A stretch of DNA of 57,574 bases, filler included, from Sphacelaria rigidula (Eukaryota): assembly GCA_964200075.2 (NCBI GenBank). It is 5 parts of 5 records of this genome, joined end to end, with 100 filler letters (N's around TTAATTAATTAA, not from the genome) between each part and the next. Parts side by side here need not be neighbours in the genome. Positions count along the whole stretch, not along the records: positions 34,609 to 46,042 come from CAXNAA020004928.1; 4 more parts are not named here. One strand, written 5' to 3'. The position numbers and the translations under genes were made by a program. Position 1 is the first letter of the stretch. Each line of letters opens with the position of its first letter. Positions 11,438 to 46,142 of the stretch are shown in pieces. The notes under the pieces were generated by a model. It saw only the letters and a list, made by a program, of their open reading frames with translations, did not search any database and was not told where the DNA came from.

Positions 11438-11537
11438 NNNNNNNNNNNNNNNNNNNNNNNNNNNNNNNNNNNNNNNNNNNNTTAATTAATTAANNNNNNN
11501 NNNNNNNNNNNNNNNNNNNNNNNNNNNNNNNNNNNNN
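11438..11537. other. Artificial scaffold spacer N44-TTAATTAATTAA-N44
   Basis: Exactly 100 nt. The central 12-mer gives stops in all six frames. Confidence 0.98.
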
Positions 11538-22973: not shown

Positions 22974-23073
22974 NNNNNNNNNNNNNNNNNNNNNNNNNNN
23001 NNNNNNNNNNNNNNNNNTTAATTAATTAANNNNNNNNNNNNNNNNNNNNNNNNNNNNNNNNNNNNNNNNNNNN
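22974..23073. other. Artificial scaffold spacer N44-TTAATTAATTAA-N44
   Basis: Identical 100-nt linker. Confidence 0.98.
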
Positions 23074-24199
23074 TGCTGAAAATCCGCGTATGTAACCGCA
23101 GGGTTATGACAAAGACCGAAAGTTCTGATCTATTTTCAGGTGCAGGGTGCGCATTAGGTTGTGTACATCCAATGTAGCAAGCAGTATGGGTCGTGGTCAA
23201 GAGCTTCCAACAGGATGCGACGACCGGCGGGCCGTCCGCCACTTGTGGCCTTAGATGATACTATTGTCCCCATCACCTTGTCACACAGCCCTTTGTGGTC
23301 GGGGTGGGCCGTCATTTCCCACCTTGTTGCATGCGGCAAATTCTCTTCCAACGGTATCAGCGTTGCGGCGCGCATGCATACAACAGTATAGTACAGTACA
23401 GTCTAGTATGCCTCTCCGACTAAAGCNNNNNNNNNNCCGCTGCATACTCCCTTGCACGTTCTTGGCAATTCTCAGCTACCGAAATCAGCTGCCTATATAC
23501 AGCTTTGTCATCCCCGTCCACAACATACATGTGGACTGCACACTGCAAGTCACCCGCAGAGGGATAGGCAGAATCCATGACGGTAGCTCCTTTTGTCTTC
23601 CCACAGCCCACCTGGATTTTGTGCCTCGTGAAAATGGCCACATGATGGCATGTACACTCCTTCCCGGCTTTTTCCGGACCACCCTGTGTTAGTGTAAATT
23701 ACTACGTTCTAGTATGGAATTGGGACCCAAAAAACACTCCGGAAAAACTCGGGAACGGTATACTGAGTGCAGGTAAAACCATAAAACCAAGCCGCGACCA
23801 TCCTGCGCTCGGAAACCTGGAGAGGCTTATCTGGGCCAGGGATAGGGCCCCCACACGATCTTTACGGTGGCACCACACTCAACAACAATCCCTGTGTTGG
23901 TCGTTCGGGTCTGGTCGATAATTTTCGCCTCGCCGTGGTTGGACAGGTCGCTCCAAGACTTATTTTTCATTATTTCACGAACACAGGGTCAACCCTGTGT
24001 TAGTGGGGGTCCGGTCCCAAAAGAGTTAAACTGTAGTTTCCAGTCCCACCAGGAAAAAGACACAAGCGCGAAACTCAACTTTCCGCTCGGTGCATTGTAC
24101 TACAAGAAAATAACCTCTTATCCGTCATATCGTTGACCGTATTTTCGTCAACTGAACGGGGTTGTTCTGTATGTATGTATACTCCCGCCCCCTCTACAA

Positions 24200-34508: not shown

Positions 34509-34608
34509 NNNNNNNNNNNNNNNNNNNNNNNNNNNNNNNNNNNNNNNNNNNNTTAATTAATTAANNNNNNNNNNNNNNNNNNNNNNNNNNNNNNNNNNNN
34601 NNNNNNNN
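34509..34608. other. Artificial scaffold spacer N44-TTAATTAATTAA-N44
   Basis: Identical 100-nt linker. Confidence 0.98.
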
Positions 34609-35450: not shown

Positions 35451-38400
35451 AAGATGCAGACCGAATGATATTTTAAAGGGAGTATGAACAGTTCCGATTA
35501 GCAATTAACAGCGACTGCTTGAAAACAGTTGTGCGGCAGGGTGCCCATGTGTCACATGGGATGAAACGTTACCGACCCTTTGGGGTACTGCGCAAAATGC
35601 CTCTCCGTATGAGTCTCCACCGTTTTGGACCCGTGTCCGGTGTAACGCTTTTCGACGGCTATAACAAAGGCTGCTCAGAAACTAACTCCCAGGGCGGAGG
35701 CTGGTGATATTATATACCGCACTCCTTTTTCCGACCTGTGTTGCTCTTGTGCAGCATATGCTTTATCCTGGACTGTACTTTCTGTCACCACTGGGACTGT
35801 TTTGGTGCCTCACCAGAGGAGTTACTGTACGTACTGACTGGAAACCTCGCTTCCCTTGTGCATATTTGACCAGAGGGTTGCTACTTTTTCCCCATTGCAT
35901 GCGCTCTGAGACGTGAAAAAATGAACCATCTGCTGTTTGCAACTCCTCTCAACTTGCGAGCTGAGGTTCGGCACGACCGTCCAATTCACCCTCTTCTTTC
36001 GTTTGCTCAATGGTAGTAGGCTATAACAAGGTGATGCATTCGCAGGTTGAGTAGAATTTTGTTCGTGCGATTTCGAGTCACCGCGTTTCCAGGGGTCGGT
36101 CTGCTTGATTGACAGCCGTCCCTCTTGCACTATAGTGGTCGGAGGTGGGAAAATATGTGCGTTTTTGCTCTTTGACCAGCCTTGCCGGTGACACATAATG
36201 CACACTGGACGCTAATTTTGCGTTTCGCTGGCTCCTACAATCCTCTCAACTCGAATAACTGTGCACAAATGGCCCATACGTTTTACCTGCGGAAGTGTAC
36301 CTCGGTTCCTTTTGTATCGGATGGTGTCGCCAGTGCTAAGGCAGTGTGCTCCGCACGTCAAAGTGCCCTGCAATCGTGGGTTCAAATCTCTTCGTTGACG
36401 CCATTGTGAACTAAGCTTCGCTAGGGGTGAGGCAGTAGAGTAACGGGCACCTAAGAAGAGCGTTGTCGTACCCTGCTGCCGAAGGATCTCCAGAGCGAGG
36501 CGTCATTCTATTTCTTGTCATTTGGGCAAGGATGCGGCCGTGACCGATGGTAGGCAAGGAGAAGAACTGAACGAGGTGGTACGGTAGTACCGGCCCCGCG
36601 CATGAACCCTGGTGTTGTTTTGGGCTCTTGTACCGTAGACCAGGTGGTACGGTAGTACCGGCTTCGTTCCACCAGGGTCCATGCGGTGTTCCCATTGTTT
36701 TGGGCTCCTGTGCCGTAGACCCGGTCTGCTTAGGTTTCCGAAGATTCAGTTTCACAGGTTTGAACGTTTCGGGTCCGCTCATGTGTGTCACTGGCAGACC
36801 CCGTTGCTGAGACTGTTTTTCCGGCTTACATGTGTATTTGGATGTCATTACGCTGATACATATGTGGCCTCCACACTTAGCAGGATCTGTTCAGAGTGTC
36901 CTATATTCTACCCTCAAAACATGGAATATCATATGTATGTAGTATCCGCAACGAAATTGCCGTATCAAAACCCGACAGAAAAATAATATTCCGCCTTCAA
37001 CCAAATTAGCCGCCCTACTCTGCTTTTCTCCGCTGCAACGTCCTATTCGAGGTCAACATCCTGACGCTCCCATCTGTCCTCACCAGTGTTCGTGGCCAAC
37101 GCCACCCCCCATCCTCGCCACTTCTTGTCGATGTTCGTAGTCAGTGCTCCCTCTGCTTCCTTTCATGATGAAACACTTCCTCCTGCGTAATGCACTCCGG
37201 TTCTGGTCTTCAAGTGTCTCGTGTAGGAGGCTCAGCCAGATCTAAGCCGTCCGTCGACGACCGCTTCTCCTCCATCGTTGTCCCCGAAATCAGCCTAGAC
37301 ACCGGCACACGCTCCTTTATATCAAATGTGTGCGTGCTAGCCTTCGGCAGCAGTGTCATCTGCCTCCGCTCACACACCGAACCCCACCATGCCCGCAGTC
37401 AGGATGTTGACTCGTGATCACTGCTGCATTGTAACATGGGCGGGTGTGCCTGATGGACACGGCGCTGACCCGACTCCATCGCCACGCCATGGCCTTGGCC
37501 ATGGGTATTGGCGATAAAGAAATCACTCCTCGAGGGTAAGTCCGGCCCCACACCCGCCGGAACGACCCTTCCCACACCGTACCGACAAAAACGATCATGG
37601 TCTTCGTTGGAGGACGGGGAACGGCGAAGTACTAACCAATACGAGAAATGGCGAAATAAACTCGCAAAACATAGAGGTTGCCTCGCTCACCACACCACAC
37701 CAAACATGACAAGAGGCTCTTGTCCCATCATCACATAGAACCGTTTTCTATAGTATCGTACGGACATTTCACTGTACCAAAATGCGCATGTTAGAAACAA
37801 GGAATGAGTTGGCTTCCTCAAAAGCGGGCAAGAGGTTTTGTGATCAACCAGCTCGGAATCAGAAGCTCGACCACCTCGCCAGCTACTTCCTCGTGCACGT
37901 CGGCAGTTTTCCTCGCCATTTTGTTTTCATCATGCGATAGTGCCGTTTGTTTCTTAGGCCCGTGGTGACACGACACAAAATAGGACCAGCAGTTTAAAGC
38001 CACGTTTTGTGGAGAAGCACTTCCTCGAAATGTGGTGATTTTTCCCATGTGATGTTTCTCAAACACTTTTTTCTGAGACCCCTGAGGGCAAAACTTTGTC
38101 TGGGATATGAAGGTCACCCCAGATAGATGCTTTCCATGCCCCTCGTACTATGAAGGAACCGAATGGGGGGTCATTAGAGCGCTCCCATCAAGCATGGTAC
38201 AACTAGCTGTCTAGATCTAACAGTACATAAATGAAGCACAGCTGCACACGCAGGGTACCAACAGCACAGTGTACGGTGCAGCAACATCACAGTATCGCCA
38301 GTGTCGCGGTGTAACTGCACGAGGAATACCCACAGCTTAGCACATAGCTGTGCAGTACGTGCGATACATCCACAAGCGGCAGCAAAATGCTGCACGGTAC

Positions 38401-39379
38401 ATGCAATGCAGCCATACAGGTGGGGCACTACAGTATACAGCACATTGCTCCAGAAAACGGAGAGTATAGCGGCCGCCGTTTCACGCGCCAAGTAAAACAT
38501 GGCGAGTATCACGAGTATCACGGCGGGCGGGCGCACCCGTATCGGTTTGAAACGTTCCAGGCTTTTTTCAGAAGTGCCATGAGCAGTTTCGGGAAGTGTT
38601 GTCGAAAATTCGTCTCTGCCCGACCTCTTGGAGTGTCGTCGAATCACAAGAAGCGGTCTCAACAAAAGAGATATTGAAGAAAACATATAATGACTATTCT
38701 CAGAAATCGAGCCGCAGCAGGTGCCATACCCACCATAGAGCCAAACGTCACACGATTGCCGCGGGTTTTATATGGTGAGTTTATGGTCGAGCATGGGTTT
38801 TACGGCATCTGCACTGTATGATATGTGTTTTTCACAGCGCGGCATGGCGTGGTACACATGATCTGTTCTAACGTACAGCACGACACGGTGCCAAAAACTC
38901 ACGGTACGGCGGATTTCATTGTAAACGGAATCTATGATTTTGCGTTTCCGCAGTATGGCACGGTGCTGGAGTCGCATATTTGTGCGTAAACTACGGGGGG
39001 AAGTGTGCTGTTCCGCTGAAACATTTCGGGCGAAGAGATTCTTGCTCGACTTGTGTTCTCTTGCTGGAACCGCAAGTCTAAGCCTTACTTGACCCACCAG
39101 CAAAATGTTTGTGGCGTCTCCATTTCTGTGTATGCATATATATATATATATATGACATTCGTTTTGCCGTTTTTCGCGTGACGTGAATGTTTGCTTGTTT
39201 GTACAGCTTTTTCTCAAGATTGGCCAGGTGTGAATCCGTTTCCCAAGGCTGGTGACGCTCATCTTATCAGCTCACTAATGACTATTGTATGCACTCGCAC
39301 GAGTTGCACGACGAGGGCATCATATGCTGCAGCGAGTAGCTATTAGGGGGAGTTCTGCGCCACACACGCCGAAGTGGGC

Positions 39380-41362
39380 ATGGTCGATGTGGTGAACAAG
39401 CGGTGCGGCGGGAAGGACTGCTCTACAATAGCATCGTTCGGTGCAGCCAGTAGCAGGAAGGCGGAGTTCTGCGCCGCACACGCCCGAGCGGGGATGGTCG
39501 ATGTCAAGGGCAAGCGGTGCGGCGAGGAGGGCTGCTCCACATACCCATCGTTTGGTGCAGCCAGTAGCAGGAAGGCGGAGTTCTGCGCCGCACACGCCCG
39601 AGCGGGCATGGTCGATGTGAGGAGCAAGCGGTGCGGCGAGGAGGGCTGCTCCAAAAAACCATCGTTCGGTGTAGCCAGTAGCAGGAAGGCGGAGTTCTGC
39701 GCCGCACACGCCAGAGCGGGGATGATCGATGTCAAGCGCAAGCGGTGCGGCGAGGTGGGCTGCTCCAAACACCCATCGTTCGGTGCAGCCAGTAGCAGGA
39801 AGGCGGAGTTCTGCGCCGCACACGCTAGAGCGGGGATGGTCGATGTGAGGAGCAAGCGGTGCGGCGAGGAGGGCTGCTTCACATACCCATCGTTCGGTAC
39901 AGCCAATAGCAGAAAGGCGGAGTTCTGCGCCGCACACGCCCGAGCGGGGATGGTCCATGTGAAGAGCAAGCGGTGCGGCGAGGTGGGCTGCTTCAAACAA
40001 GCATCGGTGGGTGCAGCCAGTAGCATGAAGCCGGAGTTCTGCGCCGCACACGCCCGAGCAGGGATGGTCGATGTGAAGAACAAGCGGTGCGGCGAGGAGG
40101 GCTGCTCCACATACCCATCGTTCGGTGTAGCCAGTAGCAGGAAGGCGGAGTTCTGCGCCGCACACGCCCAAGCAGGCATGGTCGATGTGAGGAGCAAGCG
40201 GTGCGGCGAGGTGGGCTGCTTCAAACGACCATCGTTCGGTGCAGCCAGTAGCAGGAAGGCGGAGTTCTGCGCCGCACACGCCCAAGCAGGAATGGTCGAT
40301 GTGAGGAGAAAGTGGTGCGGCGAGGAGGGCTGCTCCACATACTCATCGTTCGGTGTAGCCAGTAGCAGGAAGGCGGAGTTCTGCGCCGCACACGCCCAAG
40401 CGGGGATGGTCAATGTGAGGAGCAAGCGGTGCGGCGAGGTGGGCTGCTCCACATACCCATCGTTCGGTGTAGCCAGTAGCAGGGAGGCGGAGTTCTGCGC
40501 CGCACACGCCCGAGCGGGTATGATCAAAATGAAAAACAAGCGGTGCGGCAACGAGGGTTGCTCCACTCAGCCATCGTTTGGTAAGGTCGGTACCATGAAA
40601 GTTGAGTTCTGCGCCACACACGCCAGCGCAGGGATGGTCTTCATGAACGGCATTGCGGAATCCTCGCGGCGTTTTTTCAACGGGATGCGGGAACAAGGGA
40701 ACAACTATCGCCCTGGTGCACGTGACCTGACCATGGCGTCTGATGCCGCAGGACGTGTCCGAGAAAGAATTTACCTGAACGATGACTCGGCCGTGGGAGA
40801 GACTGGTGGTGCTATCGACACAAGGGGTGGAAAATCCAATCATTCATCGGGACGTGGTTCCAATACGCACGATCGTGGTCGTAACGTTGATTCTCGTCGC
40901 AGCTCGCGTGCCATCCATGTCGGGCGACGGGGTGCGAACTCTGCGACCATTTCACCTGCCACCTGGACGCAGTCTCCTGGCACGGCGACAGCAGATAGAG
41001 TTCCGTTAGGTGGGGCAGAGACGTACATGAAAACCAAAGTGGAGACGACTGTCGCGCCTGCGCAAGGTTTCGAGGGGATGCGGACAAGCGAACTGGTCAC
41101 TGCGCGATCCAGCAGATGCGACGGCATGAGCCGTGGCGGCTCCAGCAACACCACCAGAAACGCAAGCTGTGATGATACCATCACCAATGGAAGGGGCACG
41201 AAGCGGCTACGCCGGGCGGCGCAGGTGGAGCCGGTAAATGACGCAGAAACGGAGGGCTCTATGATGTCTGAAGAAAAGGGAACCGATATAAAGTTGGAAT
41301 CGGATGTGTGTGTTCCCTCTCTTCACGTGTCCGCAGCCTTGTCCCGCCCGCGAGCGAGGTAG
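39380..41362 (+). CDS. EsV-1-7 cysteine-rich repeat protein (660 aa from ATG 39380; apparent original ATG at 39278 with in-frame TAG at 39344); 11 intact 38-aa repeats plus a low-complexity C-terminus
   Basis: Intronless ORF. The unit KRCGEEGCSTYPSFGAASSRKAEFCAAHARAGMVDVRS (C-x4-C-x16-C-x2-H...GMVDV) is the EsV-1-7 motif known from Ectocarpus virus 1 and the brown-algal IMM family. Confidence 0.92.
   Translation: MVDVVNKRCGGKDCSTIASFGAASSRKAEFCAAHARAGMVDVKGKRCGEEGCSTYPSFGAASSRKAEFCAAHARAGMVDVRSKRCGEEGCSKKPSFGVASSRKAEFCAAHARAGMIDVKRKRCGEVGCSKHPSFGAASSRKAEFCAAHARAGMVDVRSKRCGEEGCFTYPSFGTANSRKAEFCAAHARAGMVHVKSKRCGEVGCFKQASVGAASSMKPEFCAAHARAGMVDVKNKRCGEEGCSTYPSFGVASSRKAEFCAAHAQAGMVDVRSKRCGEVGCFKRPSFGAASSRKAEFCAAHAQAGMVDVRRKWCGEEGCSTYSSFGVASSRKAEFCAAHAQAGMVNVRSKRCGEVGCSTYPSFGVASSREAEFCAAHARAGMIKMKNKRCGNEGCSTQPSFGKVGTMKVEFCATHASAGMVFMNGIAESSRRFFNGMREQGNNYRPGARDLTMASDAAGRVRERIYLNDDSAVGETGGAIDTRGGKSNHSSGRGSNTHDRGRNVDSRRSSRAIHVGRRGANSATISPATWTQSPGTATADRVPLGGAETYMKTKVETTVAPAQGFEGMRTSELVTARSSRCDGMSRGGSSNTTRNASCDDTITNGRGTKRLRRAAQVEPVNDAETEGSMMSEEKGTDIKLESDVCVPSLHVSAALSRPRAR
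39398..40651 (+). repeat. 114-bp coding minisatellite x11
   Basis: Near-identical units; CGGAGTTCTGCGCCGCACACGC is invariant in units 1-10. Confidence 0.95.
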
Positions 41363-42724
41363 GTTCAAGAGAGGATCCGTGCACGTATGTTCCCCGGCAA
41401 TTGTTGGGCAAAGCGTTGTTTCGCCGTATTTCTGGTGCGCAGGTCCTGAATTCGTCCAAATCTTCGCGGTAGATATCCGTTCGTTTCGAGTTCAAATGAT
41501 GCCACTGTATTTGGACGATGGCTAACGAAGGCAAATGCCGCGTCATTTTCGTGGATTTTTTCACGCGTCACATAGCTTATGAGCTACCTGAATATTACTT
41601 CTGATTGATGCACTGCTCCGGATCATGGGCTAGCTTACTCGCCTCCTTTCTTCACGTTTTCCGCGTAGAGAGTTGGGCTCTGAGCACGCGAGGTAGCGGA
41701 AAGGTAGCGCTGAGGCTCGTGGTAAGCCCTGTCAACGCATTTGGCGTTCTTAGCCGACGGGTCTGAGAGTTCTCTTCGATCAGTGTTTTTAGTTAGCTCA
41801 TGATCTGTCCGATGTGTGGGTGTTTTTGAGGTGGCCAGTTACCTTCGGTCACGGTTTCCGCGGCGCGGTACATTGTATTGTTTGTTTTTTCGTATTTTCG
41901 AGCTCTTTCAGCATGTTGCGTTTTGTTTTGCTACTTTCGATAGGTCGCTGTTCAGAAAGGTGAATTTATATCCATACTCCACCACCGCGTCCCCATCATG
42001 CAGCTGATGAATTCGAAAGGCGTGCATGCGGGAGTTTCAGGGTTTGAATCCGATGGATCCGGTCCATCACATGTATCTGGTATGTCATGGATAAGGTGAG
42101 GACGTGAGTAGAGGGGACTTTGATGACAGTCGACACAATGCAGGAGTGCTGATGTCATTCACGGTACCGAAAGGTCGGGCGTGTACCGAGAAGGAGATGG
42201 TATCGTTCCTCGTGGCTACAGATGCGACTCGCAGAACGGGAGAAGTTAAACGAGGGAAGAAAAACAGCCAGTTTGCTGATGGTACAACCATTTTGTTTTT
42301 TTCCCGACATAACAGGGTGCCCAGCGGCAAGAGTGCGAAGCTGGAATGTGCACCGCCAGTAAACAGGGTATTCCATAAAATGAGTTTTTCTTGACTAGCC
42401 AGTATGCGTCAAAAAGCCGACAGAAGTACCGTCCGCAAGCGCCCCCCATCATTTCCGGGGAGAGGAAACAAGTGTCGATGGCTTGGGCGCCTATGGTCTA
42501 CGTAGCGTTTTTCGACTGCTCATAGCTCTCTGCCGGCGGCGTCGAAATTTGTTGTCGAAAAAATTGAGGATAAAAACTTTACCTGTTCAGTATAGCTGGG
42601 ACCCGATAATTCTACCCGCGACTCTGTGTCCCGAAGCCGGTCCCTCATTAACAATGTCGGGGTCTGGTGTGCCCACCTCCTCGTCGTGAACACTCACAAC
42701 AACGTTTTCGTGAGATAAAGACTA

Positions 42725-46042: not shown

Positions 46043-46142
46043 NNNNNNNNNNNNNNNNNNNNNNNNNNNNNNNNNNNNNNNNNNNNTTAATTAATTAANN
46101 NNNNNNNNNNNNNNNNNNNNNNNNNNNNNNNNNNNNNNNNNN
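46043..46142. other. Artificial scaffold spacer N44-TTAATTAATTAA-N44
   Basis: Identical 100-nt linker. Confidence 0.98.

Follow-up and report, generated by a model that had tools for sequence, protein, structure and literature searches.

EsV-1-7 proteins consist of tandem units of about 38 amino acids (aa), each with the spacing C-x4-C-x16-C-x2-H (Pfam PF19114). The family includes a gene of Ectocarpus siliculosus virus 1, EsV-1-7, and the developmental regulator IMM (Ectocarpus IMMEDIATE UPRIGHT). According to a survey of brown-algal genomes, these algae possess many EsV-1-7 genes, which tend toward tandem clusters; with 2018 members in 31 genomes the family is among the largest expanded brown-algal families, and IMM itself has five units (10.1101/2024.02.19.579948). 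Ectocarpus EsV-1-7 proteins are reported to have no other Pfam domain (10.64898/2026.04.27.720984). The domain has been described as a cysteine-rich motif, possibly a new class of zinc finger. The literature searched, which did not include the founding description of the family, mentions no ligand, no analysis of variable positions and no nuclease fusion in the passages searched. Here we describe a protein of this kind from Sphacelaria rigidula. It is encoded in a stretch of 57,574 nucleotides (assembly GCA_964200075.2; five parts joined end to end) that we call the window, within the part that comes from record CAXNAA020004928.1. It has eleven units instead of the five of IMM, no Pfam domain besides, and a tail common only to Sphacelaria paralogues. 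One residue of the unit, position 11, is on average the most variable within arrays, both algal and viral, and is drawn from an almost acid-free alphabet. In giant viruses the same units are joined to a tail that is likely to have a nuclease fold. Together, these observations offer a concrete hypothesis for what has been an 'unknown cysteine motif'.

An eleven-unit Cys3His array

To judge by its sequence, this gene belongs, as an ordinary-looking member of the Sphacelaria type, to the known brown-algal EsV-1-7 family. An earlier reading of this DNA, made from the sequence alone, had proposed eleven 38-aa units of the form C3-x4-C8-x16-C25-x2-H28, and translation agrees (Table 1). All 11 units have this spacing and start in frame at 39398 + 114k, and Tandem Repeats Finder (TRF) reports one array in the region, at 39345-40639, with a period of 114, 11.4 copies, 87% matches and 0% indels. 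The family assignment made in that reading holds as well, for the Pfam model EsV_1_7_cys matches 12 stretches with a total of 541.4 bits against a gathering cut-off of 25 (E 6.9e-167). All 44 zinc ligands of the array are intact and each is encoded by identical codons. The three cysteines and the histidine of each unit presumably bind zinc, as sequence and model suggest, and every unit carries a net positive charge, between +1 and +5.

The sequence-only reading had singled out the two residues that follow the second cysteine by two and three places, positions 10 and 11, which run TI, TY, KK, KH, TY, KQ, TY, KR, TY, TY, TQ along the array. These residues and their codons are exactly as it gave them (for position 11: ATA, TAC, AAA, CAC, TAC, CAA, TAC, CGA, TAC, TAC, CAG), as is the TR of a broken unit directly upstream, a decayed twelfth copy at 39284-39397 with an in-frame TAG at 39344-39346. 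The proposal that the pair as a whole is hypervariable survives in one half. Of all positions in this array, position 11 shows the greatest amino-acid entropy, 2.22 bits, and it peaks again in the two larger sets described below. Position 10 has two states only, K and T, coupled to E or V at position 6, so that two kinds of unit, E6-T10-Y11 and V6-K10-x11, follow each other in alternation. In the family at large, position 10 is K in 245 and T in 125 of 536 units, and is not hypervariable.

Position 11 in algal and viral arrays

A protein homology search returned 229 matches at E <= 0.001 among 7998 scored candidates, and the best 120 of the 229 were analysed; the taxa named among the matches listed are Sphacelaria, Ectocarpus, Pylaiella, Scytosiphon and Laminaria. 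A strict spacing pattern recovered 541 units from these proteins (536 unique), and 65 arrays, mostly algal, had at least five. Averaged over the 65 arrays, within-array entropy peaks at position 11, with 1.86 bits (95% bootstrap confidence interval 1.72-1.98). Core positions other than 11 reach at most 1.38 bits, and the paired difference from positions 26, 13 and 9 is significant (P < 1e-4). Position 11 ranks first or ties for first in 20 of the 65 arrays, is among the top three in 33, and comes out ahead of the rest in 97% of bootstrap replicates. When closely similar units of one array are compared (1-8 differences; the window excluded), position 11 is the one most often different, in 65% of the 119 pairs.

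The most frequent residues at position 11 are R (130), Q (108), I (49), H (41), L (32), V (28) and K (27), with D and E occurring three and four times (n = 536). These acids thus make up 7 of 536 residues there, against 9.8% across the units overall (P 9e-16), even though a single base change would turn the Gln, Lys and His codons in use at the position into codons for Glu or Asp. The alphabet is typical of side chains that contact bases or the methyl group of thymine, in keeping with what the sequence-only reading had said of the smaller sample in the window. The units of the family set are basic, with a mean net charge of +2.7.

The viral arrays give a second set. A search of IMG/VR giant-virus sequences with P0103 as query yielded 96 candidate stretches, 92 of them relatives, and 80 loci were kept; the window's own array, used as query, found no viral relative. 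An open reading frame (ORF) with at least three units was present in 67 of the 80 loci, and the 13 that had none under the spacing pattern were excluded. Among 35 unique viral arrays of at least five units (240 units), within-array entropy is again highest at position 11 (1.75 bits), followed by positions 13 (1.66), 38 (1.55) and 2 (1.49). The viral alphabet at position 11 is R (85), Q (76), I (34), H (18), L (14) and S (9) of 262. At the level of codons, from 449 close intra-array pairs in 40 arrays, codons 13 and 11 reach a proportion of nonsynonymous differences (pN) of 0.47 and 0.44, respectively, compared with 0.14 overall. The overall proportion of synonymous differences (pS) is 0.31, giving ratios of pN to overall pS of 1.44 at codon 11 and 1.54 at codon 13. 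Both codons are at least as free to change as synonymous sites, and diversification and neutrality are therefore both compatible with the viral data.

A tail with a predicted nuclease-like fold on the viral arrays

In 61 of the 67 viral proteins, a tail of 150-205 aa extends beyond the last unit. Aligned, 41 non-identical tails share the invariant residues D30, R41, D43, E56, D58, E59, N60, H62, R90, N92, P93 and D94. The motif reads ..RRPD..E-x-DENQH..FIRFNPD, with an invariant D..E-x-D-E-N-x-H..R-x-N-P-D. An AlphaFold model of one tail is well formed (pLDDT, the predicted local distance difference test, 82.5; pTM, the predicted template-modelling score, 0.80). Foldseek matched this model to McrC (E 1.9e-3) and Hjc (E 2.7e-3), and then to Bax1, R2 endonuclease and restriction enzymes. 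VIA-align matched it to 3hrl, a DUF559-like protein (Z 7.4, root-mean-square deviation (rmsd) 2.9, 91 residues aligned), to Vsr (1cw0; Z 7.3, rmsd 3.6, 113 aligned), to I-Bth0305I (3r3p; Z 7.2, rmsd 3.7, 95 aligned) and to the FAST1-FAST2-RAP module of FASTKD4 (Z 7.4). Searches by sequence were silent: Pfam gave nothing significant for ten viral tails (Hjc E 0.036, NurA E 0.14), and a PDB profile search with the viral tails gave nothing. Because the fold matches are consistent with one another and the acidic motif is conserved, the viral tail is likely, on the strength of the model, to have a Vsr-like PD-(D/E)xK nuclease fold.

Between the last unit and the nuclease-like domain, an additional cysteine element, C-x4-5-C ... 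Y-x-G-Y-C-x2-C, is present in roughly half of the viral tails (loci L015, L017, L026, L033 and others; alignment A2, columns 1-40). It may be a zinc knuckle of a different kind.

What the units might contact

A model of four consecutive units (39722-40195; 120 homologues) has a pLDDT of 88.5. By DSSP, the secondary structure of each unit amounts to little more than short beta bridges, at residues 14-15, 24 and 34-35, and one helical turn of three residues, 26-28. In this model the units are well-defined beads whose mutual orientation is undefined. Variability is raised at positions 9, 11 and 13, that is, at i, i+2 and i+4, which suggests an extended segment with one side exposed.

We think it quite possible, and incline to the view, that the array is a string of beads that binds nucleic acid, with DNA as the probable ligand. 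The stretch just past the second cysteine, about residues 9-13, would give every unit a small contact surface, with residue 11 as its principal unit-specific contact. DNA is favoured as the target because giant viruses join such arrays to a tail with a predicted Vsr-like nuclease fold. A nuclear location for the algal protein, DNA as its ligand and residue 11 as the contact are, all three, things that we infer. A bolder version, in which EsV-1-7 units are unrecognised modular DNA-reading fingers, and residue 11 (R, Q, H/K or I/L/V), helped by residues 9 and 13, specifies a base or a short motif, strikes us as unlikely.

If arrays of this kind do read DNA, brown algae would possess a lineage-specific class of transcription factor, built on a new modular DNA-binding scaffold. 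On the bolder version, arrays such as this one and that of IMM would be sequence-specific regulators, the giant-virus arrays would serve to aim a Vsr-like nuclease, and arrays could, in principle, be re-ordered to address new targets.

Weighing the alternatives

A good deal weighs against a DNA-binding role centred on residue 11. The peak is modest, 1.86 bits over a background of about 1.2, and two linker positions, 38 and 37, come close to it at 1.68 and 1.67 bits (Wilcoxon P against position 11, 0.04 for position 37 and 0.02 for position 38). With the linker nearly as variable, simple exposure could explain much of the signal. The arrays within each set are related to one another and so are not independent samples. 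Between proteins, position 11 differs in 47% of 68 close unit pairs and ranks third, behind positions 30 and 5. In the viral set, codon 11 has a pS of its own of 0.55, which brings its pN/pS to about 0.8, neutral-like rather than clearly positive. In the array of the window, positions 38, 16, 35, 37, 6 and 30 reach 1.24-1.86 bits, and 27 of the 38 codons have changed at least once across the units. Out of a minimum of 63 changes, six fall in codon 11 and equally six in codon 35, and the excess at codon 11 (binomial P 0.006) loses significance on Bonferroni correction for 38 codons (P 0.24). Internal units differ from one another by 4-18 nucleotides per 114 (pairwise pS 0.11), the first unit differs from the others by 11-20 and the last by 28-33; the near-identity even at synonymous sites stated in the sequence-only reading does not hold. 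The array does not support the idea that variation is localised to residues 10-11 of a homogenised, TALE-like scaffold.

The structural searches also weigh on that side. The four-unit model has no fixed geometry between units (pTM 0.48), and gives no rigid solenoid; a solenoid was what the sequence-only reading had named as support for its proposal. Foldseek found no match to this model at E <= 0.001, the best being coronavirus nsp13 at E 1.2, with PHD, LIM and FYVE domains weaker still; VIA, run against 48,161 chains, returned a single row with Z 2.5. PDB sequence searches did no better. The 424-aa array matched nothing meaningful (recA, E 0.69), one chance match (E 0.71) came from the array profile (A1), and none, at E up to 10, from the profile of a single unit (A4). 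The window protein contains no nuclease or other known DNA-related domain detectable by Pfam or hhalign. Even the viral-tail matches are middling, none with a Foldseek E <= 0.001 and none with Z of 8 or above, and might reflect a common arrangement.

A rival account takes position 11 to be no more than the exposed loop residue that best tolerates change in a small zinc knuckle, in an array that binds proteins, or that binds nucleic acid without sequence specificity. We regard this as possible, if somewhat doubtful. The near-equal variability of linker positions 37 and 38, the many other positions that vary in the window's array, the neutral-like pN/pS of viral codon 11 and the failure of the four-unit model to match a DNA-binding fold all agree with it. 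On this account the preference for R, Q, H, K and I would reflect solubility or a basic surface, and the avoidance of acids is indeed regional: D and E are also scarce at positions 10, 12 and 13 (8, 1 and 2 of 536). What it explains less readily is that position 11 comes out on top in two independent sets with nearly the same alphabet, that acidic residues a single mutational step away are almost absent, and that in the viruses the array is joined to a conserved tail with a predicted nuclease-like fold, an arrangement that asks for a module to target DNA.

A second alternative concerns this copy rather than the family. The gene might be young, weakly constrained or decaying, with an array that unequal crossing-over has lately enlarged and with differences that are mostly neutral drift, in which case its pattern would say little about function. 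Some features point that way. The array has 11 units compared with about 4 to 9 in its closest relatives, the paralogues with the same tail; a broken, stop-bearing unit lies directly upstream; the exact protein is absent among the matches listed; and the five Y11 units use a single codon. Overall pN/pS among the internal units is 0.90. Against this account, the synonymous differences concentrate in the linker (pS 0.26, pN/pS 0.50) while the core that bears the ligands is conserved. The gene has also kept a frame of 660 codons open across array and tail, all 44 zinc ligands with identical codons, and the tail residues that are invariant in nine paralogues. On balance we consider this account improbable. 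The internal-unit pN/pS is 3.5 for codons 10-11 and 2.3 for the core (codons 3-28), from few events, and among the internal units alone codon 11 accounts for 4 of 38 changes (corrected P 0.66). Because so few independent events underlie these ratios, we make no claim of selection from the single array.

The alternation at positions 6 and 10 points to duplication of a block of two units, and most likely the array would have lengthened by unequal crossing-over of such a block, E6-T10-Y11 followed by V6-K10-x11. There is no sign of rapid, PRDM9-like change: among related arrays with like numbers of units and at most 25% difference, four pairs gave only 18 unit comparisons, in which position 11 differs in 33% and is not the most changeable position.

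Finally, the units might read RNA in the manner of some small CCCH or CCHC knuckle arrays, with a post-transcriptional role. Their basic charge, their modelled form as flexible beads with little secondary structure and the lack of a match to a DNA-binding fold would suit this, but we think it very unlikely. Against it, the nearest solved folds to the viral tail include DNA nucleases of the Vsr and I-Bth0305I kind, and the basic motif TKRLRR in the window protein's tail would fit a nuclear protein.

The gene and its surroundings

The features of the gene are collected in Table 1. The coding sequence lies in a long ORF on the + strand, 39374-41362, that opens with a GTG at 39374; the first ATG past the decayed unit is at 39380, and the stop codon occupies 41360-41362. 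The closest relative among the matches listed, P0001, is an unnamed Sphacelaria rigidula protein with 84% identity, and its N-terminus, MVDVVSKRC, supports the choice of start.

Table 1. Coordinates of the EsV-1-7 gene and its parts in the window
Feature	Position	Strand	Basis or content
Probable 5' untranslated part of exon	39205..39379	+	Contig starts (weak hint); overlaps decayed twelfth unit
Probable coding sequence	39380..41362	+	660 aa plus stop; N-terminus MVDVVNKRC; start matches P0001
Eleven EsV-1-7 Cys3His units, 114 nt (38 aa) each	39398..40651	+	TRF, Pfam, translation
Codon 11 of each unit	39428..40570 (39428-39430 + 114k, k = 0..10)	+	I, Y, K, H, Y, Q, Y, R, Y, Y, Q
C-terminal tail, 236 aa, rich in small residues	40652..41359	+	Alignment A3 with nine Sphacelaria rigidula paralogues
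TKRLRR basic motif	41198..41215	+	T, K and third R invariant in 10/10 aligned tails

Aligned with the tails of nine Sphacelaria rigidula proteins, that of the window protein shares 15 invariant positions. TKRLRR is a possible nuclear-localisation signal, going by its composition. Compared by hhalign with the profile of the viral tails (probability 0.04, E 0.87), it proves unrelated to them, and it lacks their conserved D..ExDENxH..RxNPD; the protein atlas offered no usable match for the window protein's tail. The remaining Pfam rows for the window protein lie within the array, and none has an individually passing stretch. Pfam co-matches in the relatives (Gallidermin, Phe_ZIP, Rieske, zf-A20, DUF1936 and others) likewise have no passing stretch or fall inside the repeats, and we dismiss them as summed noise. 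One relative, P0043, a eukprot gene model, joins a GNS1/SUR4 (ELO) elongase domain (E 1.3e-46) to eight EsV-1-7 units; it could be a merged model. Weak matches to Zf_WRKY19 (PF24906; cut-off 27 bits) occur in P0011 and P0016, with 35.9 and 26.5 bits, and in other relatives too, and span roughly the first 11-13 of the 24 profile positions; by this sequence likeness, EsV-1-7 units may be distantly linked to a plant zinc-finger motif.

The gene probably has introns. Contigs of runs X1 and X5 start at 39206 and 39205, just past an AG at 39203-39204. No contig of X1, X5 or X7 covers 38300-39103, and X9, probably a DNA run, has one there. The kind of run is unrecorded for X1, X5 and X7, and the pattern could hint only weakly at a spliced transcript. 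One X5 contig has 116 extra letters upstream that are absent from the window, and the contigs of the X runs differ from the window at five positions, so that an allele or a paralogue is possible. Read depth within the array is inflated by the repeats and was left unused. A (TA)n microsatellite at 39138-39155 is followed by a pyrimidine-rich stretch that runs up to the same AG (39198-39204), a possible splice acceptor.

The 57.6-kb window contains just five ORFs of at least 200 aa and, beyond this one gene, no further EsV-1-7 motif. As far as the window shows, the gene is cellular, of brown-algal type, and not a viral insert. Two long antisense ORFs, of 321 and 407 aa, cross the array on the minus strand (39320-40566), because the tandem repeat is free of stops in that direction. 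G+C content is 0.53-0.56 at 38001-42000, compared with about 0.42-0.52 in the rest of the window. Runs of N at 11438-11537, 22974-23073, 34509-34608 and 46043-46142 each consist of paired blocks of 44 N around 12 bases and recur at a spacing of about 11,535 bases, a regularity that looks like masking or processing and not like biology; a separate run of 10 N lies at 23427-23436.

Comparison with known systems

The nearest relatives in architecture outside the algae are the EsV-1-7 array proteins of giant viruses, which have in common with the window protein the repeat unit, the peak at position 11 and its alphabet. They differ in their predicted Vsr-like, EDxHD-type tail, which the window protein, the product of a cellular gene, lacks. 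A more distant likeness is to the first zinc site of SBP proteins (PF03110), which we take to have the same C-x4-C-x16-C-x2-H spacing, a lead and nothing firmer. The SBP model scores 30.7 bits for the window protein against a cut-off of 27, summed over the repeats and confined to profile positions 1-38 of 75, and 21 bits for P0001. No single stretch passes by itself, and PDB searches with the single-unit and array profiles brought up no SBP structure at E up to 10.

Two modular DNA readers invite comparison. TALE repeats, like the units of this array, are tandem modules of fixed length with one standout variable position, but they are helical hairpins, not zinc knuckles, and the four-unit model here shows no superhelix. 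TALE repeats are, besides, near-identical outside the repeat-variable di-residue. The C2H2 arrays of KRAB-ZNF proteins and PRDM9 are, like EsV-1-7 arrays, strings of small zinc modules with a few module-specific positions occupied by R, Q, H, K or aliphatic residues. Their ligand spacing and fold are different, and the variable site of the EsV-1-7 unit is not on a helix. By analogy, then, and unless we misjudge the role of residue 11, the pattern seen here resembles the finger-to-finger differences in contacts of C2H2 arrays more closely than it does the sharp code of TALEs.

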